64,000 bases of DNA. Source: Escherichia phage ST0. The translations under genes and the position numbers were made by a program. The stretch lies in sequence record MF044457. One strand, written 5' to 3'. Below the pieces are notes generated by a model. The model was not told where the DNA came from and did not search any database. It worked only from the letters and a program-made list of their open reading frames with translations. Shown here one piece after another: positions 154-28,116 of this stretch (its first letter is position 1; each line of letters starts with the position of its first letter).

Positions 154-789
154 ATGAAAACTACTCCTATTACTATCGCTATTGACGCAATCATAAAACA
201 AGCTTCTTCTTTGGCCGCTATGGCCAAAGTAATTAGTCAAAACCCTGCTCGTTATAATGCTATTCTAGAAACTCTTCGACGCCCAGGACTTAGTAATTAT
301 GAAAGCCGAGTAATTATTACAGGTGTTGGTAAGAATGCTAATATTGCAACTAAAGCTTCTGAGACATTTGCTTCACTCGGTATCCCGAGTATGTACTTGA
401 ACACCGGGCATTATTCTCACGGTGATGCAGGATTCATTGCGCCTAATGATGTGTTGATTCATATTAGTCGTTCTGGTAAAACTGAAGAAATGATAGGCGT
501 GGCTAAGCATCTTAAAATGATTCGTCCGAACGTCAAACAGATTCTGTTGCATTGTAACCCAGACATTCCACAAGAAAATGAAGCCCTTTTTGATTACTCT
601 TTCTGTACAGGCATCGCAGTAGAGGTTGATGAGAATTCTCTGGCTCCGACCATGTCCACTACATTGTTGTTAGCGCTTATCGATACTTTTGCTATCAACC
701 TTTCGTCTGAGCGTGGATTTACCTCTAATGACTTCCTTAAGTTCCACCCTGGTGGTGCACTAGGTGCCATGTTACGAGGCGAACAATGA
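154..789 (+). CDS. SIS-domain sugar-phosphate isomerase, KdsD/GutQ-like arabinose-5-phosphate isomerase without CBS domains
   Basis: ORF track 211 aa. Motifs typical of the KdsD/KpsF SIS domain: GVGKNANIATK, SHGDAGFI, ISRSGKT, APTMSTT, FHPGGALG. RBS GAGAG upstream. Confidence 0.8.
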   Translation: MKTTPITIAIDAIIKQASSLAAMAKVISQNPARYNAILETLRRPGLSNYESRVIITGVGKNANIATKASETFASLGIPSMYLNTGHYSHGDAGFIAPNDVLIHISRSGKTEEMIGVAKHLKMIRPNVKQILLHCNPDIPQENEALFDYSFCTGIAVEVDENSLAPTMSTTLLLALIDTFAINLSSERGFTSNDFLKFHPGGALGAMLRGEQ

Positions 790-929
790 AAGCAATAACA
801 ATAGGACTTTTACTATTGATGCTTATCATGACTATCTACTGGAGCTTAACGGCTCCGGTAATGATTCCGACTCTTATAATCGGATGGATTATGATTGGAC
901 TACAAGCAAAGTATGAATGCTTTAACTAG
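786..929 (+). CDS. small hydrophobic protein, 47 aa, below ORF-track size cutoff
   Basis: ATG at 786 overlaps the stop of the preceding gene (ATGA). Translation MKAITIGLLLLMLIMTIYWSLTAPVMIPTLIIGWIMIGLQAKYECFN is almost entirely hydrophobic. Confidence 0.35.
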   Translation: MKAITIGLLLLMLIMTIYWSLTAPVMIPTLIIGWIMIGLQAKYECFN

Positions 930-970
930 AATAGTGTACAATACTCCTACTTACCAATGAGGACCACAAT

Positions 971-2656
971 ATGAAAAAAGCTGTTATTCTTGGTGCTGGA
1001 CTGGCAACTCGTTTGTATCCAATAACGCATCATATTCCTAAGGTGCTTGTTAACTATAAACAAGACACTATTCTGAGCAATTTGTATACAATTTATTCTG
1101 ACCTTGGTGCAGACGAAATTATTGTAGTAGTTCATTCAAAATTTGCTGAAACTGTTCGAGCTTATTGTGAGCAAGAAGGGTTCAATGTGACTATTCGTAC
1201 AGTTGATGAAGCATATGGTTCTGCTTATGCTCTTGCTAAATTGCACAAAGATTTAGACGGCCATAATGTAATTGTTAACTGGTGTGATATTATTCCCGAT
1301 TTTGGTTCATGGTCTTGGAATGTTAACGCAATCTATGTTAAGGGTGACGAATGTCGATATAATTTCGACGGTGAAAATATCACTAACGTAGGTTCAACAG
1401 GTGGTAATGTTGTAGGAATTTATCAGTTCAAAGACTGGGAATTCTATATGGGTTCTACTGATGAGGAAATTCATGAATACTGCAAAGGACGTGATTTCGT
1501 AGAATTCCTTTACGGCAGCGCATTCAATAAATCAGAGCTTATGAATCTAATTGATTTAGGTGATATGCCTAAACTTGAAAAAGCTCATGAAGTTCGTGAA
1601 CTTAATCGTAGTTTTAATGCAGTTGAAATCGGTGAAGAAACTGTAACTAAATTCGCATTAACCGAACAGGGCCGAGCTCTTCAGAAAGATGAGATTTCAT
1701 GGTATCTTAAAGTGAAATCAGATTCAGTTCCTCAGTTAGTTTCTGTTAATGAAAATAACTTTGAAATGGAACGCATTAAAGGTAAGCCAGCATTTGAATA
1801 TATTAAATCCAAATCGAGTCTTGCTCGTCCACAAATTGTTGATGCAATTTTAGATGCACTGAAATTCAGCACAGACACTTATTTTGTAAGTCCTGAAACT
1901 GTTCGCCGTGATTTCACTAAAGAGTTCTATACGAAAGTTATTGATCGTTGTGAAAGTATTCAACCATTGATTGATTCATTCGGTAAAATCACACATGTGA
2001 ACTACACTAAGATTGGACGTCTGAAGCCAATGTTGAAACAAGCTTTAGAACACCTTATTCGTTATCATAACCGTTCTCAGGGACAGTACTCTGTTATTCA
2101 TGGTGACCCGAACTTCAGTAATACTATGATTACTGATAATGGTGAAGTCAAGTTTATCGACCCTCGTGGATATTTTGGTGAAACCAAGATTTACGGGCCA
2201 AAATTGTATGATGAAGCTAAAGTGCTTTATGCTGTTTCAGGTTATGATGAATTCAACGCTAATCCGACCTGGGGGCAATTTACTATTGATGAAACAACTT
2301 GTAATGTGACTATTAACATCAATCCATTAGTTTACAAATATGGAAAGATGAGTTCGTTTAACGAGTATCATCATTTGGCAGTTGCAATTATCTGGATTGC
2401 ATTAGGCGGTTATTTCAAGAATAATCCACTTAAAGCGGTAGCCGCATATTATAAAGGTATGGAACTTCTGACTAAGCAATTACGCAACATGGGCCGTGTA
2501 CTTCAGGACGGCTCTATTAGTTATGACGTAGCAGAACCTGTAACGGCTACTCTGATTACAAAAAATCCTGGTAAATGGGTACTAACTGATAAAGAAACTG
2601 GTGTTTCCTATCGTCCAATCGGTGGCGATATCACTCATCAATGGGAACGAATCTAA
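971..2656 (+). CDS. bifunctional sugar-1-phosphate nucleotidyltransferase (N-terminal) / sugar kinase of the choline-kinase/APH fold (C-terminal)
   Basis: ORF track 561 aa. N-terminus ILGAGLATRL is the G-x-G-x-R loop of LicC/RmlA-type nucleotidyltransferases. C-terminal half has HGDPNFSNTMI and FIDPRG, resembling the catalytic loop and DFG-like motif of LicA/APH kinases. RBS GAGGA. Confidence 0.8.
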   Translation: MKKAVILGAGLATRLYPITHHIPKVLVNYKQDTILSNLYTIYSDLGADEIIVVVHSKFAETVRAYCEQEGFNVTIRTVDEAYGSAYALAKLHKDLDGHNVIVNWCDIIPDFGSWSWNVNAIYVKGDECRYNFDGENITNVGSTGGNVVGIYQFKDWEFYMGSTDEEIHEYCKGRDFVEFLYGSAFNKSELMNLIDLGDMPKLEKAHEVRELNRSFNAVEIGEETVTKFALTEQGRALQKDEISWYLKVKSDSVPQLVSVNENNFEMERIKGKPAFEYIKSKSSLARPQIVDAILDALKFSTDTYFVSPETVRRDFTKEFYTKVIDRCESIQPLIDSFGKITHVNYTKIGRLKPMLKQALEHLIRYHNRSQGQYSVIHGDPNFSNTMITDNGEVKFIDPRGYFGETKIYGPKLYDEAKVLYAVSGYDEFNANPTWGQFTIDETTCNVTININPLVYKYGKMSSFNEYHHLAVAIIWIALGGYFKNNPLKAVAAYYKGMELLTKQLRNMGRVLQDGSISYDVAEPVTATLITKNPGKWVLTDKETGVSYRPIGGDITHQWERI

Positions 2657-3042
2657 TGCACCGTGTAGAAAACATGCTTAATCTTTGTTTTGATGTCGAT
2701 GATTGTATAACAGAGTGGAATAACAATCGTGATTACGTGAACTTCAAACCAGACGTCGAAATGGTGTCTGCCATTAATGCCCTGTATGATGCAGGGCATA
2801 CCATAACGCTTTACACTGCTCGCGGTATGAAGTCAGTAGGCCCTGGTCGTATAGCAATTGACATTCTCCCAAGTCTGATTCAGAACTTGGCAAACATTGG
2901 ATTGAAGTACCATAATTTGCTAACACATAAACCAGTATATGATTGGATTATCGACGACAAAGCTATGCGTCCTGACGAATTCAAAGCTCTTATGAATAAA
3001 GGCGAATTCGAAACATTTAAATCATATAAACCGAATCTATAA
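2656..3042 (+). CDS. HAD-superfamily phosphatase-like protein
   Basis: ORF track 2641..3042; start moved to ATG at 2656 overlapping the upstream stop (TAATG). Motif I-like FDVDDC near the N-terminus, T in LYTAR, K in THKP, IIDDK motif IV-like. Confidence 0.6.
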   Translation: MHRVENMLNLCFDVDDCITEWNNNRDYVNFKPDVEMVSAINALYDAGHTITLYTARGMKSVGPGRIAIDILPSLIQNLANIGLKYHNLLTHKPVYDWIIDDKAMRPDEFKALMNKGEFETFKSYKPNL

Positions 3043-3096: not shown

Positions 3097-4257
3097 ATGA
3101 ATACCTTTAAAATCGGAACGAATTTTGATTTAGCTCTTCTTGATAAAATCGTAGAGCTCAATAAAACTTATCCTAATAGCTTGATAAACGAAGTATACGG
3201 CTCTACAAGAGAAATGGCTTTTGTAGCAGCCAGACCTGATTTTAGGCTTCCTGACGTTGACAAAAAGATGTTAGAAGATTACGTTAAACGTTGTAACGAA
3301 TTAGGTATTTGCTTTAACTATACACTCAACACGATAAATCCTGGTTCAAAAAGAGAACTAGTTGAGTGGAAGAAGAAAGCTATTCAGGATTATGTTCAGT
3401 ATCTTTGGTCAATAGGCGTATGGCGTATTACTATCGCTAACCCTGTTGTTATGGAAATTGTTCGTGAAGTCAATAAAGACATTGAGATTGAAGTTTCAAC
3501 AATTCTACATGTCGATGCTGTAACTCAAATCAAATACTTGCATGACCAATATAATATCAAAAAGGTCTGCTGCGGAATTCATAAGAACCGTTCAGTTTCT
3601 TTCCTGAAGCGTGCAGCAGAGTTTTGTAATAAGAACAATATAATATTTGAAGTTCTTGTAAATGAGTTCTGTTCTAATGCTGGTAAAGGGTATACAACAC
3701 ATTGTAGTTATCGTGACTCTTGCTATATTTTCCATAGCACCGATGTTACAGTAGATGATGCCAAATCTTTAAATGGATATCCAATGCAACATTGTATTAA
3801 AGCTCGTGATACAGATCCATTTAACTGGTTGAGAACTCGTTTTGTTCGTCCTCAAGATTTGAAACTTTATAATGATATTGGTATCACTCAATTCAAAGTT
3901 TCAGGACGTACAGGTAGCACAGACTACATTTTGAAAGTTCTTGAAGCTTATGCTTCTGAAAAGTTTGAAGGTAATTTGTTGGAATTGTGGAAGCCTTTAG
4001 AGACCATTTTCACTCTTGAAAATGAGACTGAGTTTTCACATACGGTAAATATTGAAACCTCTTTGTTAGATGGCTTTTTAGAAAAAAGGTGGTTCAGACA
4101 TCCAGATTTCGATTGTGCTAATGAAATCTGCGGGACGACGTGTACATATTGTGAAAGATATTATAAACGTCAATTATCTAAAAACGGGTTAGCAGAAAAC
4201 TCTATATCTATTATTGATATAACTAACTCTGATGACGCTTTGAGGTACCCGGAATGA
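3097..4257 (+). CDS. Cys-rich protein with U32-family-like signature, function unknown
   Basis: ORF track 386 aa. EVLVNEFCSNAGKGYTTHCSYRDSC resembles the U32 family signature (E-x-F-x2-G-x-x-C...C-x-x-S); C-terminal CANEICGTTCTYC cluster. Confidence 0.55.
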   Translation: MNTFKIGTNFDLALLDKIVELNKTYPNSLINEVYGSTREMAFVAARPDFRLPDVDKKMLEDYVKRCNELGICFNYTLNTINPGSKRELVEWKKKAIQDYVQYLWSIGVWRITIANPVVMEIVREVNKDIEIEVSTILHVDAVTQIKYLHDQYNIKKVCCGIHKNRSVSFLKRAAEFCNKNNIIFEVLVNEFCSNAGKGYTTHCSYRDSCYIFHSTDVTVDDAKSLNGYPMQHCIKARDTDPFNWLRTRFVRPQDLKLYNDIGITQFKVSGRTGSTDYILKVLEAYASEKFEGNLLELWKPLETIFTLENETEFSHTVNIETSLLDGFLEKRWFRHPDFDCANEICGTTCTYCERYYKRQLSKNGLAENSISIIDITNSDDALRYPE

Positions 4258-4397
4258 TTTCTAGAAAAACTTTTAACCACCAACTTAACGAAGAGATTTT
4301 GACTATGAAAATTAACAGCAACGAACAAATTCTTAAAAAGGCCCTAATGGGCCTGTTTGAAACTAAAGCGGCTAAAGTGATTAAAGAACCTGTTTAA
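4254..4397 (+). CDS. small ORF, 47 aa, below ORF-track cutoff
   Basis: ATG overlaps the stop of the preceding gene (ATGA); translation MISRKTFNHQLNEEILTMKINSNEQILKKALMGLFETKAAKVIKEPV. Confidence 0.25.
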   Translation: MISRKTFNHQLNEEILTMKINSNEQILKKALMGLFETKAAKVIKEPV

Positions 4398-4535
4398 TTG
4401 GAATACTACGCTGATGCATTTCTTCATAGTGTTCTTGGAAGTATCGATGCTGAAGCTTTACGTTATATCAACATTGTCAAGAAATTCAAATAAGCTTTAC
4501 GAATTGAGTATATAATAAATTGTATTGAGGTAAAC

Positions 4536-5252
4536 ATGGGAAAACATAACACAATGAAATATATCAAAGCCGCAGATTTTCAAACCGCATTTAAAGCAGT
4601 CAATCGTGAAATTTTAGAAAACCCGGAATTCGTAACTGATTCTCGTATTGGACGTTGTAATGAAATTGGGTCTATGACAGTAGTTGTTGACACTCCGTCA
4701 TCATTCAAAATGACTGACCCACGTATTAACCGCATCTCTTATGAATATGCCGAAGACTTCTGGAAGTTTATGATTTCTGGTGGTACCAACGCAGAAGAAG
4801 CGTTTAAGGCATATCCTAATGTCGCTAAATTTATTTCTAAACCAAAATCAGATGTTTTGCCGGCGAACTTCAACACTTTCTATGGTCCTCGCATTGTGGC
4901 CCAATTACCAGCTCTTCTAAAAGAACTTAAAGAGAAGCCTAACTCTCGAAGAGTTGTGTTCCAAATTCTAGAAAGTTCTGATCAGGCTTTGCTTGATTCG
5001 GACGAAACACTTGAATATCCATGTACTGACTCAGTGACTTATTATATTCGCGATGGTAAGCTTTATACCCACTGTCATATGCGTTCTCAGAACTGTGCTG
5101 TTGTTATGCAGTTGGATTTTTATCTCCAAGGAAAATTACTTCATTATATCGCTAACGAATGTGGTGTAGAAGTTGGTGATTATACTCATACCATGGTAAG
5201 TGCCCATGTGTTTGAACGTGATTTTGATTATGTTAAAGGATTCCTTGACTAA
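4536..5252 (+). CDS. 42: thymidylate-synthase-fold pyrimidine hydroxymethylase, gene 42 (dCMP hydroxymethylase) position
   Basis: ORF track 238 aa. NSRRVVFQI, YPCTDSVTYYIRDGK and HMRSQNCAV parallel the SRR, catalytic Cys and MRSND regions I recall for T4 gp42, but overall divergent. RBS GAGGT. Confidence 0.7.
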   Translation: MGKHNTMKYIKAADFQTAFKAVNREILENPEFVTDSRIGRCNEIGSMTVVVDTPSSFKMTDPRINRISYEYAEDFWKFMISGGTNAEEAFKAYPNVAKFISKPKSDVLPANFNTFYGPRIVAQLPALLKELKEKPNSRRVVFQILESSDQALLDSDETLEYPCTDSVTYYIRDGKLYTHCHMRSQNCAVVMQLDFYLQGKLLHYIANECGVEVGDYTHTMVSAHVFERDFDYVKGFLD

Positions 5253-6151
5253 TGGCTATTTTCCGCGTACCTATCTTGAGTATGCGGTCTTATGAAACTG
5301 GACAGTATGCTATCCTTAAGGATGGCAACTTCCAACTTCATTTGCACCGTGCTAATCCGGGTGATGTGATTACATATCCACGTAATGCATCTGATATTAA
5401 AGAATGTGAACGTCTTTTCCCAGAATTTAAGTTTGTTCCATTATGGTATAAAGATAACGCGTATAACACTCGTAAATATTTCTGGTCTGAAAATGAATTT
5501 GTGGTTGATTCATTAATTGCTTATTATGATTGTGATTTTCTAATCACAGATATCACTGGATACGACGGCGCTTTTGACGTAGAATTCAATTTCAATATCA
5601 CTGCAGACCCTAATAAACCACGTTTTTATATTGACGAATTCTTAAAAACCGATATGTTGTCGGTTAATCGTTCACTTCAAACTACCGTGTTGAATAAACG
5701 TCAAAAGGAAGTGCTGGTTAACGCTGGTGCAGATGGTAATAAGATTATCGTAACGCAGAAAGTTATACGTCCTTCCATCATGCAGCGTCTTGTAGGTGAT
5801 TTGGCTCCTATTCATCTAGATGGTATTTTTCATCCATTTCGAATTAGTGACCCGTGCTATCGTTTTGAACAAGTGGTTGAATGTGCAATTCAATTAGGCC
5901 AACCGCTTTATATAACCGATCCAAATAATAGCTTCGACAGAAATAAGTATCCTGAAGAAGCGCTGATTCGAATTTTTAAACCAACTAAAACTGAGTACTA
6001 TCAAATTCTTAAAGGACGGCCGAAGATTCAATATTTCGAAAATCCTGAAGAAGTATTCCATCCAGGTCTTGGTGAGTTCATCTACTTTAATGCTTTAATT
6101 TCTTCACCGTATAATATACCTAAATACGAAGATGTCGTAATCGAGGAATAA
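5252..6151 (+). CDS. hypothetical protein at the beta-glucosyltransferase locus
   Basis: ORF track 299 aa; start overlaps the stop of the hydroxymethylase gene by 1 nt. No motif recognised. Confidence 0.5.
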   Translation: MAIFRVPILSMRSYETGQYAILKDGNFQLHLHRANPGDVITYPRNASDIKECERLFPEFKFVPLWYKDNAYNTRKYFWSENEFVVDSLIAYYDCDFLITDITGYDGAFDVEFNFNITADPNKPRFYIDEFLKTDMLSVNRSLQTTVLNKRQKEVLVNAGADGNKIIVTQKVIRPSIMQRLVGDLAPIHLDGIFHPFRISDPCYRFEQVVECAIQLGQPLYITDPNNSFDRNKYPEEALIRIFKPTKTEYYQILKGRPKIQYFENPEEVFHPGLGEFIYFNALISSPYNIPKYEDVVIEE

Positions 6152-6152
6152 A

Positions 6153-6701
6153 ATGGCTAAAATTATTTTAGTAGATGGCCCAGATAATGCTGGTAAAACA
6201 ACTTTCATTAATGACATAATGGAAATTAGTGAAAGATATGTAAAGATTGATTTCCCTAAACGAACAGTTGATGGACGTTTCGATGTTAAGTCTCGAAATG
6301 AAGTTGGCTGTTTCGAAACGATGTTGAATTATTTAGACCCTACTAAGATTTATCTGTTAGACCGTGGATATATTAGTAACTGGGTTTATGGACGTATTCG
6401 ACAAGATGCGGACTCGGTTCTTGACGTTTATGAACAGGATTATGTTCGTCTTTGCCAAAACCATGATGTGTTCACAATTATTTTAACACGTAACGAAATG
6501 ACTGAAAGTTTTGAAGACGATCTTATTACTTTGTCTTCATTCGGTTTTAATACAGTCATTTCATATTTTGAAGAGTTTGCAATTCATAACAAAATCCAAA
6601 CGTATCAATTACTTAATCATGACGGTGCTAACAAAGTTATAGGATTTAATGCAAGCGAACGTAATTATTTGATTACAGAAATTATCAAATGGGCTCGTTA
6701 A
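6153..6701 (+). CDS. P-loop NTPase, small nucleotide/sugar-kinase-like
   Basis: ORF track 182 aa; Walker A GPDNAGKTT at residues 9-17; starts 1 nt after the upstream stop. Confidence 0.6.
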   Translation: MAKIILVDGPDNAGKTTFINDIMEISERYVKIDFPKRTVDGRFDVKSRNEVGCFETMLNYLDPTKIYLLDRGYISNWVYGRIRQDADSVLDVYEQDYVRLCQNHDVFTIILTRNEMTESFEDDLITLSSFGFNTVISYFEEFAIHNKIQTYQLLNHDGANKVIGFNASERNYLITEIIKWAR

Positions 6702-6800
6702 GAGCCTGTTTAAAGTTTTAAATGCTGTATAACCCTTAGTATATAATCGTCTTATCTTTTAAACATGAGTAAAATATAATGATGCCTATGGAAAAATACA

Positions 6801-7973
6801 ATGTCTGATTTAAAATCTCGTCTGATTAAAGCTTCTACTTCTAAAATGACTGCAGACTTGACTAAGTCTAAGCTGTTTAATAATCGTGATGAAGTCCCTA
6901 CTCGTATTCCGATGTTGAATATTGCATTAGGTGGTGCACTGAATGCCGGGTTGCAATCAGGCTTAACTATTTTTGCTGCTCCTTCTAAACACTTTAAAAC
7001 GTTGTTTGGACTGACCATGGTTGCAGCATATATGAAGAAATATAAAGATGCAATCTGTTTGTTCTATGATTCAGAATTTGGTGCTTCAGAATCTTATTTT
7101 CGTTCAATGGGTGTTGATTTAGACCGTGTAGTTCATACTCCGATTCAATCTGTCGAACAACTTAAAGTTGATATGACTAATCAGCTTGACGCTATTGAAC
7201 GCGGTGATAAAGTTATTATCTTTATCGATTCAATCGGTAATACTGCATCTAAGAAAGAAACTGAAGATGCATTGAACGAGAAAGTTGTAGGTGATATGTC
7301 TCGTGCTAAGGCACTTAAATCTCTGTTCCGCATTGTGACTCCTTATCTGACTATTAAAGATATTCCATGTGTTGCAATCAACCATACAGCAATGGAAATC
7401 GGTGGATTGTATCCTAAAGAGATTATGGGTGGTGGTACAGGTATTCTTTACTCTGCTAACACTGTATTCTTTATCTCTAAACGTCAGGTTAAAGAAGGTA
7501 CAGAATTGACCGGTTATGACTTCACGTTGAAAGCAGAAAAATCTCGCACCGTTAAAGAAAAATCTACTTTCCCAATCACGGTTAATTTTGATGGCGGTAT
7601 TGACCCATTCAGTGGCTTGTTAGAAATGGCAACTGAAATTGGTTTTGTGGTTAAGCCTAAAGCTGGGTGGTATGCTCGTGAATTTCTTGACGAAGAAACA
7701 GGTGAAATGATTCGTGAAGAAAAATCATGGCGTGCTAAAGCTACTGATTGTGTAGAATTCTGGGGGCCGTTGTTTAAACACAAACCTTTCCGAGATGCAA
7801 TTGAAACTAAATATAAACTAGGTGCTATCTCTTCTATTAAAGAAGTTGATGACGCTGTTAACGACCTTATTAATTGCAAAGCAACAACTAAAGTTCCGGT
7901 TAAAACTTCTGATGCTCCGTCTGCAGCAGATATAGAAAACGACCTTGACGAAATGGAAGATTTCGATGAATAA
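6801..7973 (+). CDS. uvsX: UvsX RecA-like recombinase
   Basis: 390 aa; near-collinear with T4 UvsX as I recall it (MSDLKSRLIKASTSK..., GWYAREFLDEETGEMIREEKSWRAK). Confidence 0.95.
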   Translation: MSDLKSRLIKASTSKMTADLTKSKLFNNRDEVPTRIPMLNIALGGALNAGLQSGLTIFAAPSKHFKTLFGLTMVAAYMKKYKDAICLFYDSEFGASESYFRSMGVDLDRVVHTPIQSVEQLKVDMTNQLDAIERGDKVIIFIDSIGNTASKKETEDALNEKVVGDMSRAKALKSLFRIVTPYLTIKDIPCVAINHTAMEIGGLYPKEIMGGGTGILYSANTVFFISKRQVKEGTELTGYDFTLKAEKSRTVKEKSTFPITVNFDGGIDPFSGLLEMATEIGFVVKPKAGWYAREFLDEETGEMIREEKSWRAKATDCVEFWGPLFKHKPFRDAIETKYKLGAISSIKEVDDAVNDLINCKATTKVPVKTSDAPSAADIENDLDEMEDFDE

Positions 7974-14687: not shown

Positions 14688-14775
14688 AATATCTCCTTAG
14701 TTACCTATTATTTATTACGCTTTATAAAATTAATGTTAGAATTAACTCTCTTATACTGAATTGAAAGGAAAAATA

Positions 14776-15297
14776 ATGGCACACTTTAACGAATGTTCAC
14801 AACTTATTTCTGGTGTTGATAAAGCAGAAGAAGCTTATTTTAATGCTCTGATTCACGAAGATAAAGACCCACTGCAGGTAATGCTTGATATGCAGAAATC
14901 TTTACAGGTTCGTCTGGCAAATGACAAGCCTGAACATAACAAACATCCTGATGAATTGGCCACTGCTGGTGATGTTGTTGATTGGCTGCGTAATCAGAAA
15001 GATTATATTGATGATGAATTCCGTGAACTGCTGACTTCACTTGGTGGTATGAGCAATGGTGAAAAAGCCGCTAGCTCTGTATGGAAACCGTGGAAGGCGC
15101 AACACGCTGAATATCGAAATCGTCGTATCGATGAACTGTCTCCTGAAGACCAGCTTGAAATTAAATTCGAGATGATTGATATTCTACATTTCGTTCTAAA
15201 TATGTTCCAAGGTCTAGGACTTTCTGCTGAAGAAATCTTCAAACTGTATTACCTGAAAAACCAACACAACTTTGAACGCCAGGATAATGGTTACTAA
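14776..15297 (+). CDS. 56: gp56 dCTP pyrophosphatase (MazG-like dCTPase/dUTPase)
   Basis: ORF track starts at a TTG at 14761; ATG at 14776 gives MAHFNECSQLI... matching the remembered T4 gp56 N-terminus; RELLTSLGGMSNGEK and EIKFEMIDILHFVLNMF conserved. Confidence 0.85.
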   Translation: MAHFNECSQLISGVDKAEEAYFNALIHEDKDPLQVMLDMQKSLQVRLANDKPEHNKHPDELATAGDVVDWLRNQKDYIDDEFRELLTSLGGMSNGEKAASSVWKPWKAQHAEYRNRRIDELSPEDQLEIKFEMIDILHFVLNMFQGLGLSAEEIFKLYYLKNQHNFERQDNGY

Positions 15298-17161: not shown

Positions 17162-17743
17162 ATGACATGTCAATCTGAACTTCAAGAACGCGAATACCTA
17201 ACAAATCTGATTGATAGCAAATTCACCAACCAAGAACAAAACATTCTCTGGGCTTGCACCGATTCTAAGGAAGACCCGGATTTCCACTATGAATTAGACC
17301 ATCTTGTTCGTAAGCATATGACTTCTACAGTACCAGTAGAACTCTACCGTGGTGTAACTCCAGAAGAAGTAGAACGTCTTTCCCTTCTTTCTGTTGGATG
17401 TCATTGGTCTCCTGGACGAGTAACATCGTTCACAACTGATTTCAGTACAGCTCGTCAATTCTCCGGGAGCTGGGAATATCAGACGTACACTATTCTTAGT
17501 CTCAGGAATGCTCCATTCATTTTTGATTACTACCAAAACATGGTTAACATTGTACTTGCCGGAAAGAATCCTAAGCATGTTATGGAAGAAACTCGTATCG
17601 ATGTCCTAGATATGATTGAATCTGAACAAGAGTATATGGTCTCAGGTATCTCTAGATTTGAGATTGTGGAAATTGAAGACTTAGAATATGACCCTTTATC
17701 TCGGTTATACAAAATCATTCATTTGAAAATGTTGAATTTTTAG
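17162..17743 (+). CDS. ADP-ribosyltransferase, ModA/ModB family (R-S-E type)
   Basis: 193 aa; ELYRGV (Arg), VTSFTTDFSTARQF (S-x-S/T region), ESEQEYMVSG (catalytic E-x-E-like). Confidence 0.75.
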   Translation: MTCQSELQEREYLTNLIDSKFTNQEQNILWACTDSKEDPDFHYELDHLVRKHMTSTVPVELYRGVTPEEVERLSLLSVGCHWSPGRVTSFTTDFSTARQFSGSWEYQTYTILSLRNAPFIFDYYQNMVNIVLAGKNPKHVMEETRIDVLDMIESEQEYMVSGISRFEIVEIEDLEYDPLSRLYKIIHLKMLNF

Positions 17744-17772
17744 TGTACAAACTCTACCGACGATGATACTAT
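17743..17772 (+). promoter_or_regulatory. early promoter
   Basis: GTGTAC, about 18 bp, TACTAT. Confidence 0.45.
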
Positions 17773-17800
17773 ACTTTTATCAACCACAGGAGAAACCTAA

Positions 17801-18409
17801 ATGTTTATGCCGTGTAATGAATGTGAAATTGAGGAAATGGTTCGACGTGCTCAATGCCCAGACTATCAGGATATGCTTCAGTACAAAATCGATGAGCAAT
17901 TCAGTGACATTGAACAAAGTGTACTATGGCAGTGTATGGAAAACAAGCCAGACAGCATCCAACAAGATTTAAGTGCAATTGTTCGTAGAAATTGGTCTTC
18001 TTCAGTTCCTGAGACAATGTATCGTGGAATCTCTAAGAAAACTATGGCCACACTCGATGATAAAGGCGTTGGTAGTATTATTAAATTTGACAGAGTAATG
18101 AGCTTCAGCCCAGTGTTCAGTGTAGCACGTAACTTCGCTTCATATAATTTTTATGGAACATTTAATATGTTCTGCATCAAAGATGTACCATTTGCTTTCA
18201 ACTTCCGTGAACATATGCTTAATATGATTCTGGCTGCACCGTCTTGTGAGTTCAATGGAGCTTTCCCTGAAGCGACAAGACGGTCTAATGCTAGACTTAT
18301 ATCTGACGAATGTGAATTTATGCTCCCTATAGGGACTACACTGCGTGTAGATTCTATTATTCAAGATGGACGTTATACAATCTGGAATCTGTCTATTGTC
18401 GGTTACTGA
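17801..18409 (+). CDS. ADP-ribosyltransferase, ModA/ModB family (second paralog)
   Basis: 202 aa; TMYRGIS, VMSFSPVFSVARNF, SDECEFMLP follow the same R / S-x-S / E-x-E layout. Confidence 0.75.
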   Translation: MFMPCNECEIEEMVRRAQCPDYQDMLQYKIDEQFSDIEQSVLWQCMENKPDSIQQDLSAIVRRNWSSSVPETMYRGISKKTMATLDDKGVGSIIKFDRVMSFSPVFSVARNFASYNFYGTFNMFCIKDVPFAFNFREHMLNMILAAPSCEFNGAFPEATRRSNARLISDECEFMLPIGTTLRVDSIIQDGRYTIWNLSIVGY

Positions 18410-21626: not shown

Positions 21627-21656
21627 GTTTACAACCAAGGACGGTTGGAGTATAAT
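21627..21656 (+). promoter_or_regulatory. early promoter
   Basis: GTTTAC, about 18 bp, TATAAT. Confidence 0.55.
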
Positions 21657-21686
21657 CTTTCTATCTTAACCAAACAGGAAAACATT

Positions 21687-22181
21687 ATGAATATCAATAC
21701 TACGGCTACTTACATCCTGAAAGACGAAAAACAAATCAACTGGTACGGTGCTTCAGTGCGAGCTTATGAAAAGTTTTGTGAAATTTTAGGCGCCACTCAA
21801 GGTAATAGTTTCACTATTGTTAACTTCATTAAACAAGCTGAAGGCCCTTGGTTATTCTTAGAAATTAAAAATTCATATGGTACAATTTCTACTACCGCCC
21901 TTCCAAGCACCGACTTTGAACTCTTGATTGAAGAAGCACCTGTTAAAGATGGTCTCCACTTTGATATGGATATCGTTTGTATGTACGGTACTCTGATTAA
22001 GCCTATTGAGCCTACTGATTTATTGTGTAAATATGTTTCAATTCGACGCCCATTCGCTGGTCCAGTAAATGGATGGGTAACTGACCAATGGATTGAAGAT
22101 GGTGTTGAACTTCTGAACGTTGTTCATGCAGGTGATTTTAGTGTAGTTCCGCGTAGTGCTGTGGTTAATATCCTTAATTAA
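21687..22181 (+). CDS. hypothetical protein, tandem paralog family member 1
   Basis: ORF-track TTG start lies inside the promoter; ATG at 21687. C-terminus GWVTDQWIEDGVELLNVVHAGDFSVVP is shared with the next two genes. Confidence 0.5.
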   Translation: MNINTTATYILKDEKQINWYGASVRAYEKFCEILGATQGNSFTIVNFIKQAEGPWLFLEIKNSYGTISTTALPSTDFELLIEEAPVKDGLHFDMDIVCMYGTLIKPIEPTDLLCKYVSIRRPFAGPVNGWVTDQWIEDGVELLNVVHAGDFSVVPRSAVVNILN

Positions 22182-22183
22182 TG

Positions 22184-22213
22184 TTGTACATCCAAGGATG
22201 GATGGAGTATAGT
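22184..22213 (+). promoter_or_regulatory. early promoter
   Basis: TTGTAC, about 18 bp, TATAGT. Confidence 0.45.
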
Positions 22214-22243
22214 GAATTCAATTTAAACAAAGAGAGAGAAATT

Positions 22244-22774
22244 ATGATTACTATTGGTGAAATCCTTCGTGTATCTCCTGCTTCTCGTTCTAAAGCTGCA
22301 GGTCGTCTGGTTGAAGTAGCAGGGCTTCGTACTAACGGCATGGGACGTGTTAAAGAAGTTAAAGTTCGAATCATGCCCAGTTTTGGCGGACAAGATGCCC
22401 AGTATGCTTACGTAAGTCCTAAATTCCTGGAAAAACATATACGAGTCCAATTTGCTTCAAGCGAAGAAGTTGCACCTGCACACTTTGCTTCTGTTGAAGA
22501 AGTTGAATCACGTGATGGATACGTATGTGAATCCGCTGAGCCTAATGTACAGTTCAAATGGGCCCTTTGCAAAGGCGTTGAATTTATAACCGATAAAGAA
22601 TTTGATTACATCGACGAATACGGTTATCCAAGCACAACTGATATCATGTGTGGCTTCATTAGTGACCAATGGGTTGAAGATGGTGAAAAGCTATACAATA
22701 TCGTATTCTTAGGTGACTTCCGAGTTGTTAAAGAATCTGAAATCACTCGCTATGCTTCTCCTCGTAAAGCTTAA
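22244..22774 (+). CDS. hypothetical protein, tandem paralog family member 2
   Basis: Start at ATG 22244 (MITIGEILRVSPASRSKAAGRLVEV); C-terminus GFISDQWVEDGEKLYNIVFLGDFRVV. Confidence 0.5.
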   Translation: MITIGEILRVSPASRSKAAGRLVEVAGLRTNGMGRVKEVKVRIMPSFGGQDAQYAYVSPKFLEKHIRVQFASSEEVAPAHFASVEEVESRDGYVCESAEPNVQFKWALCKGVEFITDKEFDYIDEYGYPSTTDIMCGFISDQWVEDGEKLYNIVFLGDFRVVKESEITRYASPRKA

Positions 22775-22783
22775 GGAATTATT

Positions 22784-23203
22784 ATGAATATTGTAAATCT
22801 CTCTACTGGTGATTACGTATATGTATCTGTTGCTTCTCGCTCTAAAGTTGCCGGGAAGTTGGTTGAAGTTCTTTATGTGAGTGATCCGGTTTTTGGACGT
22901 AACGAAGTTAAAGTTCGTGACGCCGATGGTAACATTGGTTATGTTAAAAGCCAATTCATTGAACCAGAAGAACGTGCGTTCAAATGGAAACTGTGCAGGT
23001 CTGTTTTAGTTGTAAAAGACCATGAATTTACTATTGCTTCTGCAACTGACGGGTCTCCATGGACAACGAATCAAGTTGCTGGTTTTATTTCGGACCGTTG
23101 GGTAGAAGATGGTGTTAAGCTTTATAACATCGTTTTCGCTGGACAGTTCATGGTAGTTCCTGAGTTCCAAATCAAAAAATATTGTCCAGCATCTTTTGCA
23201 TAA
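22784..23203 (+). CDS. hypothetical protein, tandem paralog family member 3
   Basis: 139 aa; N-terminus VSVASRSKVAGKLVEV and C-terminus GFISDRWVEDGVKLYNIVFAGQFMVV. Confidence 0.5.
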   Translation: MNIVNLSTGDYVYVSVASRSKVAGKLVEVLYVSDPVFGRNEVKVRDADGNIGYVKSQFIEPEERAFKWKLCRSVLVVKDHEFTIASATDGSPWTTNQVAGFISDRWVEDGVKLYNIVFAGQFMVVPEFQIKKYCPASFA

Positions 23204-27015: not shown

Positions 27016-28116
27016 ATGAAAGTTATGTTTATCCCATCTCGTGCAGTCCCATTTAATCCTGACCGTGTACAAGGTGGCCTTGAAGCAGTACATTTAAATG
27101 TGTTGAAATATCTTGTGTCCATCGGTGCTGATATTGATTATATCGGCTTTGATAATGACACGTTTGGTGACTGGAAAGTTACACACCATCCTGTTGGTCA
27201 TCTGACTAAATTCAGTCTAGGTATGAGTTATACTATGGCTCGTAAGATTGTTGAACTAGCCGACATCCATGAATACGATTTTGTTGTTACTATGGAACCG
27301 ACTAAACTAACCGTTCAGGCAATTAAAGACGCAGGTCTCTCTAAAGTTCATAAGAATTTTATGGCAACACCATTTGAACCGGTATCTCGTGGCATTGTTC
27401 AAATTTGGGACCAGACTATTCAAATTCATAAGAATGGTGGTAAGAGTTATGCTCCTACTAAAGCCTTCCGTGAATTTGAACGTAAATATTGCCATATGAC
27501 TTCAGCTCTGACTGACAAAATTGATTATGATTATTGGCGAGCAAATCCGTTGTTTGAAGCCGAAGATTATCCGGTTATTTGTTTGAATGAGAAACCTGAA
27601 GTTCTTCCAGCGACTGATCTGATTATTAGTGCACAACGTTATGACACTAAAATGCGTCGTACTGATGTTGCTCTTGAAGCAATTAAAGCACTAGGCGAAA
27701 ATGGTATTGGTTATTGTCCTAGTAAATGGGCACCACCAGCTAAATATCCTGTTATTATTGATGCTCCACACAGTGAAATCATGGAACGTCTTAAAACAGC
27801 TAAAGCACTTATTAATACGTGTCCTGACACAGGTACGGTAGAGAATAGTTCTATTGAAGCCATCTCTAAAGGTGTCCCTGTAATCCAGTTAGCTTTTAAG
27901 GATTATCCTCATGCGACATTCGAATACGACCCAGATACTGTGCGTGTCGAAATTGATTCCTCTACTCCTAAGAAAGAAGTAGTTGCGCTTTACACAAAAG
28001 CTGTATTAGAATTCACTGACACATACGAAGCTCGAGTTAAACGTGCTGAAGCAGTATGGAAGAAGTATAATCGAGATGCAGTTGTTGCGATGTGGGATAA
28101 AATCTTCACAGCGTAA
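27016..28116 (+). CDS. GT-B-fold glycosyltransferase-like protein (candidate DNA hmC glycosyltransferase)
   Basis: 366 aa; C-terminal ENSSIEAISKGVPVI resembles the E-x-x-x-x-EA...G-x-PVI donor-binding motif of GT4-type GT-B enzymes. Lies between 39/60 and rIIA. Confidence 0.65.
   Translation: MKVMFIPSRAVPFNPDRVQGGLEAVHLNVLKYLVSIGADIDYIGFDNDTFGDWKVTHHPVGHLTKFSLGMSYTMARKIVELADIHEYDFVVTMEPTKLTVQAIKDAGLSKVHKNFMATPFEPVSRGIVQIWDQTIQIHKNGGKSYAPTKAFREFERKYCHMTSALTDKIDYDYWRANPLFEAEDYPVICLNEKPEVLPATDLIISAQRYDTKMRRTDVALEAIKALGENGIGYCPSKWAPPAKYPVIIDAPHSEIMERLKTAKALINTCPDTGTVENSSIEAISKGVPVIQLAFKDYPHATFEYDPDTVRVEIDSSTPKKEVVALYTKAVLEFTDTYEARVKRAEAVWKKYNRDAVVAMWDKIFTA

Follow-up and report, generated by a model that had tools for sequence, protein, structure and literature searches.

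A predicted glycosyltransferase and a thymidylate-kinase-like protein between the 42-like gene and uvsX of Escherichia phage ST0 belong to the published RB69-type arabinosyl-5-hydroxycytosine cluster

The DNA of phage RB69 contains mono- and di-arabinofuranosyl-5-hydroxycytosine (Lee et al., NAR 2026, PMC13326640), the earlier proposal for this phage having been arabinosyl-hydroxymethylcytosine (arabinosyl-hmC; Thomas 2018, PMC6024577). Arabinosyl-5-hydroxycytosine (arabinosyl-5hoC) has been shown in the DNA of RB69 and of phage NP, both Mosigviruses. RB69 gp48 was found by experiment to be a flavin- and O2-dependent synthase of 5-hydroxy-deoxycytidine monophosphate (5hodCMP, from dCMP) with D169N as its signature, and the hydroxylase plus gp1 suffice for 5hoC incorporation into E. 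coli DNA (PMC13326640). Guided by structure predictions, the same study named gp46:47 'arabinosyltransferase 1' and gp45 'nucleotide kinase', and its authors could not decide between the mononucleotide and DNA as the acceptor of the first arabinose; Thomas 2018 makes no mention of ORF045c-048c (PMC6024577). Here we analyse a 64,000-nucleotide window of Escherichia phage ST0 (record MF044457; single strand, 5' to 3'), in which two open reading frames (ORFs) encoding proteins of 299 amino acids (aa; hereafter GT1, for glycosyltransferase 1) and 182 aa (hereafter the kinase) lie between a 42-like gene and uvsX.

About 150 Mosigvirus genomes (JQD51, phi25-307, JS09, phiC120, Bas47/AlbertHofmann and others) match the window at 98-99% identity, which places it among the Mosigviruses (RB69-like). 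The three genes in 4536-6701 are 98-99% identical to RB69 gp48, gp46:47 and gp45, the kinase being 98% identical to RB69p045 at the protein level. The GT1 gene shares 99% DNA identity with ORF047c plus ORF046c and agrees with them apart from a 1-nucleotide indel: the RB69 record has one extra T (alignment column 545; our locus L054, 4598-5498, corresponding to NC_004928 24597-25497), which explains the annotation of the transferase in that record as separate ORFs 046c and 047c, a split by an extra base that PMC13326640 likewise states. The pair, whose 299-aa member the first-pass annotation had called unknown, is therefore annotated in that study, and the locus is the already known RB69-type arabinosyl-5hoC cluster; no new system comes to light here, since publications of 2025-2026 describe the genes and the roles that they are likely to have.

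The first-pass annotation had described two translationally coupled ORFs in the place where T4 carries beta-gt, and both are present, at 5252-6151 and 6153-6701 on the plus strand and of 299 and 182 aa, the Walker A motif GPDNAGKTT lying at residues 9-17 of the shorter protein. The stop codon of the 42-like gene shares bases with the ATG of the GT1 gene (TAATG at 5250-5254), while the GT1 gene ends in GAGGAATAA, followed by 1 base and the ATG of the kinase (6143-6155). Both junctions fit a presumed translational coupling. The order 42-like - 299 aa - 182 aa - uvsX (6801-7973) - 40 - 41 puts the pair where the T4 record (43 - imm.1 - imm - 42 - b-gt - segA - uvsX - 40 - 41) has b-gt plus segA, and all genes between 154 and 6701 make up a single block on one strand, arabinose-activation genes included, in agreement with the contiguous unit of about 6.5 kb that had been claimed. 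Homologs of GT1 form 137 clusters and those of the kinase 27, with numerous invariant residues in both families, which marks both ORFs as genuine genes and not chance frames.

The 42-like protein is near-identical to PDB entries 9iqc/9ir2/9iqu (E 3e-160 against 9iqc/9ir2). In E. coli ThyA numbering it carries L143E, D169N and N177D, its residues being E143, N169 and D177, unlike T4 gp42, which retains D169. This D169N signature, together with the 99% identity to gp48, indicates that the modified base is 5hoC and not hmC, so the hmC chemistry assumed with the label 'gene 42' was wrong; judged by these residues, the product is a 5hodCMP synthase and not a dCMP hydroxymethylase. The window holds what characterises an RB69-type cluster: the adjacent ThyA homolog with the 5hodCMP-synthase signature, the genes for supply of uridine diphosphate (UDP)-arabinose, and a second glycosyltransferase (GT2).

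At the level of family profiles GT1 is indeed without recognisable motif, as had been described. It matched no Pfam family at E<=0.1, including Glycos_transf_1 and Glyco_trans_4, gave no meaningful NCBIfam match and falls in phrog_3891 of PHROGs, 'unknown function'; searched against PDB sequences, the GT1 family profile found no match. The family alignment contains 31 invariant columns among 52 sequences, and the AlphaFold2 model based on it has a predicted local distance difference test score (pLDDT) of 95.2. The model shows two Rossmann-like domains with an interdomain cleft between them, which answers the earlier question of GT-A or GT-B in favour of a GT-B, GT4-like fold. Among candidate residues of the C-terminal domain for binding the sugar nucleotide, R197, K246 and H270-P271-G272 show no variation, and E/D275 is kept in those rows of the alignment that were displayed. 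Some of the enzymes nearest in fold, sucrose-phosphate synthase for one, use small acceptors that carry a phosphate. According to the model, then, GT1 is a compact GT-B, GT4-like glycosyltransferase of retaining type, for which we infer donor, acceptor and timing; a fold of this type is consistent with the alpha linkage that PMC13326640 reports for the base-proximal arabinose.

Blastp of GT1 against T4 beta-glucosyltransferase found no homology (best E 1.4), which argues that beta-gt was replaced by an unrelated GT-B enzyme and did not diverge in place; hhalign of the GT1 family against T4 alpha-glucosyltransferase and against GT2 likewise found nothing. The suggestion that the protein could be a second transferase agrees with the prediction of a transferase, with its rank reversed: GT1 is the predicted first enzyme, and GT2 the second. 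Protein charge was tried as a means of telling DNA-acting from nucleotide-acting glycosyltransferases and did not discriminate (isoelectric points of 5.3 for GT1, 9.05 for beta-glucosyltransferase, 6.1 for alpha-glucosyltransferase and 6.2 for GT2).

The kinase is nearest by fold to canonical thymidylate kinases (TMKs), its viral fold matches are likewise TMK- or deoxynucleoside kinase (dNK)-like, and databases label it thymidylate kinase (phrog_761 in PHROGs, 'thymidylate kinase', E 6e-45). The family has the invariant motifs GxDNxGKT, FPK(R) and DR-x-x-SN-x-VY and a clade-specific F-x-DD-L-I; GPDNAGKTT, FPKR and DRGYISN of the window protein are invariant or nearly so. In hhalign with approximate reference sequences, the alignment to human TMPK ran from the P-loop through FPKR, which fell on the FPER motif, and that to E. 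coli Tmk covered the P-loop only. A kinase profile stripped of its P-loop found no TMK in the PDB, and what we take to be the thymine-O4-binding Arg position of TMKs is absent from the kinase. Neither in fold nor in sequence did the protein resemble the T4 gp1-type deoxynucleoside monophosphate (dNMP) kinase (PDB 1dek), and gluconate-kinase-type sugar kinases were not its nearest fold match. A nucleoside monophosphate (NMP) kinase is a well-supported assignment for this sequence, and a sugar kinase is not supported; of the two roles guessed previously, the dNMP-kinase-like one thus agrees with the TMK fold and the NMP-kinase motifs, and the sugar-kinase one does not. Its gene neighbourhood suggests a cytosine derivative as substrate in preference to deoxythymidine monophosphate (dTMP). 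With 300 of 1.84 billion representatives at E<=1e-3, the clade is small, and it is specific to phages. Comparison of base pockets as a test of sugar recognition showed different residues (RNEV..FET in arabinose-type kinases, EKDFE.LF in environmental ones) with no clear pattern.

Linkage of the three genes was followed in 52 viral loci retrieved by the GT1 profile and by tblastn over 50,697 phage records. The ThyA homolog, GT1 and kinase occur together in nearly all of the loci, with the ThyA homolog directly 5' of GT1 in almost all of them and the kinase directly 3' or elsewhere in the cluster, as in the JS98-like, Klebsiella and Proteus types. Numerous environmental contigs have just the ThyA-GT1-kinase triad, with no arabinose genes within 6 kb; no gp1-type dNMP kinase was seen within 6 kb of the triads either, an absence that is uninformative in such short loci. 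Among the phage records 347 match GT1 and 342 the kinase, with essentially equal counts by genus (Escherichia 175/175, Acinetobacter 57/57).

The model that we favour is built on these gene identities and linkage, on both folds and on the signature of the hydroxylase, and takes from the literature how 5hodCMP and UDP-arabinofuranose (UDP-Araf) are made, what gp1 does and how the modified base is built. In it, the two ORFs probably belong to the core of the Mosigvirus pathway that replaces cytosine with arabinosylated 5hoC. The ThyA homolog would first hydroxylate dCMP to 5hodCMP, as demonstrated experimentally for the 99%-identical RB69 gp48. The kinase would most likely phosphorylate a phage-specific pyrimidine nucleotide, converting 5hodCMP to the diphosphate (5hodCDP), a task that it would share with the gp1-type dNMP kinase of T4-like phages and, where gp1 is lacking, perhaps perform alone. 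GT1, in turn, would most likely move the first alpha-arabinofuranose from UDP-Araf to the 5-hydroxyl of 5hoC, probably on DNA after replication by analogy with the T4 alpha- and beta-glucosyltransferases. UDP-Araf would be supplied by the cassette at 154-3042, and the second arabinose would be added by GT2. The first-pass reading was of a real locus and right in outline, and it is partly supported in function, its guesses having pointed in the right direction.

The features of the cluster and its surroundings are collected in Table 1. The pathway roles of the isomerase (gp55) and the HAD phosphatase (gp51) are those of PMC13326640, which also cites the reported function of HY126 AfhE, the making of UDP-arabinofuranose; the RB69 ortholog of the U32 protein is listed there merely as 'sugar or heterocycle reductase', without discussion. 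GT2 is essentially identical to PDB 9iqz/9ir0 ('phage HY126 glycosyltransferase', E 1e-250) and is flanked by topoisomerase gene 39 and rIIA; its role as second transferase follows PMC6024577 and PMC13326640.

Table 1. Genes and promoter-like motifs of the ST0 window that bear on the modification pathway
Feature	Position	Strand	Match or remark
42-like ThyA homolog, predicted flavin/O2-dependent 5-hydroxy-dCMP synthase	4536-5252	+	99% identity to RB69 gp48
GT1, predicted alpha-arabinofuranosyltransferase 1 on 5-hydroxycytosine; RB69 gp46:47 ortholog	5252-6151	+	
Predicted thymidylate-kinase-fold P-loop NMP kinase; RB69 gp45 ortholog ('nucleotide kinase')	6153-6701	+	
SIS-domain arabinose-5-phosphate isomerase; RB69 gp55 ortholog	154-789	+	Pfam SIS E 1e-10; phrog_5670 'arabinose 5-phosphate isomerase' E 4e-116
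Bifunctional sugar-1-phosphate nucleotidyltransferase (N-terminal) and kinase (C-terminal), AfhE-like, 561 aa; RB69 gp52:53 ortholog	971-2656	+	Pfam NTP_transferase E 8.5e-10; weak APH/fructosamine-kinase matches; phrog_4098
HAD-like phosphatase, AfhF-like; RB69 gp51 ortholog	2641-3042	+	TIGR01689 (capsule biosynthesis phosphatase) E 4e-13; phrog_1238
U32-family protein; RB69 gp50 ortholog	3097-4257	+	Pfam Peptidase_U32 E 6e-11; weak UbiU match
T4 middle-promoter-like motif: AGCTTTA (MotA-box-like), 11 nt, TATAAT	4493-4516	+	5' of 42-like gene
Second middle-promoter-like motif: TGCTGTA, 12 nt, TATAAT	6723-6747	+	between kinase and uvsX
dCTPase-like NTP pyrophosphohydrolase, gp56-like	14761-15297	+	phrog_173 E 2e-45
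GT2, 366-aa GT4-like glycosyltransferase, predicted second arabinosyltransferase; RB69 ORF003c/gp3 ortholog	27016-28116	+	

Some viral contigs show the kinase and GT1 in other company. Three of them (L048:5466-8051, L049:4301-6865 and L053:5439-7973) have the order kinase - GT1-like - U32, with a PolIII-alpha gene directly 3' of U32 in L048 and L049 and a gene without annotation next in L053; no ThyA homolog was present in the stretches of these contigs that were examined. The characterised bacterial U32 proteins, RlhA, TrhP and UbiU/V, hydroxylate their substrates without O2, two of them at pyrimidine C5. By analogy, the U32 gene of the window might give an anaerobic route to the 5-hydroxyl as an alternative hydroxylase. 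The ThyA-type 5hodCMP synthase, unlike those U32 hydroxylases, requires O2. In addition, eight representatives of the kinase clade carry a C-terminal MBD4-like HhH-GPD glycosylase domain (PDB MBD4, E 1e-9) and one a UDG-superfamily domain, the set of fusions being P0179, P0180, P0185, P0187, P0189, P0194, P0196, P0242 and P0261. In the cluster around the P0179 fusion (L077:8616-14512), homologs of ThyA (D169N type) and of arabinose-5-phosphate isomerase are accompanied by an AfhE-like protein and a flavin mononucleotide (FMN) reductase; the 15 kb examined around this fusion contained no GT1.

Several points weigh against the pathway as proposed. The kinase lies far below the curated TMK cut-offs (15.6 bits for TIGR00041, against 83.25, and over the P-loop only), and Pfam PF02223 was not reported for it at E<=0.1; the family comparison suggested in the first-pass annotation yielded TMK- or dNK-like fold matches, failed these cut-offs and was negative for the gluconokinase type. 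The RB69 gp1-type kinase gp159 already turns 5hodCMP into 5hodCDP (PMC13326640), which makes a plain 5hodCMP-kinase role redundant in T4-like phages. Moreover, in Morganella phage vB_MmoM_MP1 (Gualtarvirus) an intact homolog of the kinase (54% identity, all motifs) lies between the DNA polymerase gene and uvsX (L065:5995-6525; NC_031020 20500-21030, L073), and genes for a 42-like hydroxylase, GT1, U32 and arabinose activation are absent throughout the 163-kb genome; the phage does carry td and a gp1-type dNMP kinase. Because gp1 does the same job and MP1 keeps the kinase without the pathway, the substrate of the kinase is the weak step. As for GT1, individual DLP3 glycosyltransferases, including its homolog gp79, were inactive on 5hoC-DNA with UDP-Araf or UDP-arabinopyranose (UDP-Arap) (PMC13326640), and the homolog TH1_063 of Shewanella phage Thanatos was reported as a UDP-xylose pyrophosphorylase in vitro (PMC12838424). 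The accessible literature holds no biochemical assay demonstrating activity of GT1 or the kinase, and no test of the kinase substrate or of nucleotide- versus DNA-level addition of the first sugar.

The negative 5hoC-DNA assay hints at the main rival explanation, in which glycosylation precedes replication: GT1 would arabinosylate 5hodCMP, the kinase would be specific for the bulky arabinosyl-5hodCMP that gp1-type enzymes cannot use, and the sugar would enter DNA through the polymerase. We regard this as rather unlikely. Beyond the inactivity of GT1 homologs on 5hoC-DNA in vitro (PMC13326640), it would account for a second kinase, which needs a separate explanation once gp1 covers 5hodCMP. It also agrees with the co-occurrence of kinase and GT1, often adjacent or overlapping and in either order, and with the small-phosphorylated-acceptor enzymes, such as sucrose-phosphate synthase, among the fold neighbours of GT1. 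However, every characterised phage DNA glycosyltransferase that we know of (T4 alpha- and beta-glucosyltransferase) acts after replication, MP1 retains the kinase without GT1, the kinase is not beside GT1 in JS98-like and other loci, and the base-contact residues of arabinose-type and environmental kinases differ with no clear pattern. In addition, 5hoC readily enters DNA unglycosylated (PMC13326640). A wider version, which we hold to be decidedly unlikely, would make kinase and GT1 the constant core of a modular system that hydroxylates, glycosylates and phosphorylates free nucleotides: GT1 would glycosylate 5-hydroxy-dCMP before replication, the kinase would be specific for the product, and the sugar-bearing deoxynucleoside triphosphate would be polymerised, with an interchangeable hydroxylase of ThyA type (flavin, O2) or U32 type (possibly O2-independent). 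If true, it would be the first pre-replicative base glycosylation in any virus.

A kinase of general dTMP/dNMP type that travels with the cluster, or persists as a relic, with no specific role in modification, would match the TMK fold of the protein, its database label and the intact orphan beside uvsX in MP1, which has neither hydroxylase nor GT1. We find this quite improbable, given that the genome distribution of the kinase is near-identical to that of GT1 (342 and 347 records, same genera), that it is present in the minimal ThyA-GT1-kinase and kinase-GT1-U32 triads of unrelated viral contigs, and that it misses the curated TMK thresholds. T4-like phages, moreover, encode gp1, which covers dTMP. 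The fusions to MBD4-like HhH-GPD domains (eight) or a UDG-superfamily domain (one), one of them inside the cluster with D169N-type ThyA, arabinose isomerase and AfhE-like genes, would suit a kinase acting on DNA or in DNA-linked quality control, like the 5-hydroxymethyldeoxyuridine (5-hmdU) DNA kinases of thymidine hypermodification. Such a role is very improbable here: the window protein is a stand-alone 182-aa TMK fold with NMP-kinase motifs (FPKR, DR..S), the fusions are only distant relatives (E 1e-17 to 1e-19), and glycosylation of a hydroxyl by a UDP-sugar requires no prior phosphorylation. The idea that GT1 is a pyrophosphorylase of nucleoside diphosphate (NDP)-pentoses and not a transferase comes from purified TH1_063 (300 aa, beside a ThyA homolog), which made UDP-xylose from UTP and xylose-1-phosphate and showed no transfer to plasmid DNA (PMC12838424). 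The Thanatos plasmid DNA contained no 5hoC, so its negative transfer is uninformative; GT1 has a GT-B fold and no nucleotidyltransferase fold, and the cluster already contains a nucleotidyltransferase domain (971-2656), which in HY126 is assigned as the UDP-Ara pyrophosphorylase (PMC13326640), making this reading highly improbable for GT1. The TH1_063 report is itself at odds with the confident GT-B fold of the GT1 family. Finally, a sugar kinase for arabinose or arabinose-5-phosphate, the alternative of the first-pass annotation, draws on the presence of a P-loop kinase beside sugar-pathway genes, and its chance is close to negligible: the pathway already has such a kinase in the C-terminal domain of the 561-aa AfhE-like protein, and some of the clusters that hold the 182-aa kinase show no arabinose genes within 6 kb.

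Other elements of the window complete the picture of the cluster. The two middle-promoter-like motifs were found by eye, using for comparison what we take to be the T4 MotA consensus; the one at 6723-6747 likely marks the 3' limit of the unit. If both are real, hydroxylase, GT1 and kinase could also form their own three-gene transcript. A scan for sigma-70 promoters and terminators gave no more sites than shuffled sequence. The gp56-like protein would supply dCMP, by analogy with T4 gp56 and RB69p028. In the gap between the U32 and hydroxylase genes, a homolog of the 79-codon RB69p049 (4254-4493) is broken by a CAA-to-TAA change at 4395-4397 into ORFs of 47 and 31 codons. A close relative, Escherichia phage NRG-P0074 (L001:3539-4300), has a homing endonuclease gene between its AfhE-like and HAD phosphatase genes, not found in the window. 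Elsewhere (17162-18409 and 21645-23203), two tandem ADP-ribosyltransferase-like paralogs of ModA/ModB type and three tandem MotB-like paralogs give the ordinary look of a T-even early region.

Arabinosyl-5hoC shields Mosigvirus-type phages from type II restriction, the Brig1 glycosylase and some CRISPR-Cas systems, a protection that matters for phage therapy and phage engineering. The interest that remains in the locus is why about 340 phage genomes hold a second, TMK-like kinase tied to the first glycosyltransferase, and at which level, nucleotide or DNA, the first sugar is added.

Compared with the known systems, GT1 resembles T4 beta-glucosyltransferase (GT63) in its slot between 42 and uvsX, in its GT-B fold and, by prediction, in its role in modifying a hydroxylated cytosine. 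At 299 aa it is smaller than T4 alpha-glucosyltransferase (PDB 1y6f), BshA, PimA, MshA and sucrose-phosphate synthase (340-400 aa), and unlike the retaining GT-B enzymes of the GT4 family it has no Pfam Glycos_transf_1 or Glyco_trans_4 match. From RB69 gp46:47, DLP3 gp79 and Thanatos TH1_063 it differs in nothing of substance, the ORF of the window being intact and its activity predicted. The kinase, for its part, is shorter (182 aa) than the thymidylate kinases that it recalls (vaccinia A48R, PDB 2v54; human TMPK), has the clade-specific F-x-DD-L-I motif and, unlike them, is linked to a cytosine-modifying pathway and not to dTMP synthesis. Like the predicted kinase, T4 gp1 is a phage-encoded NMP kinase through which a modified dCMP reaches DNA precursor synthesis. 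RB69 gp45, DLP3 gp78 and RL38J1 gp214 show the same TMK-like fold matches and the same place beside GT1, with no difference from the kinase of ST0.

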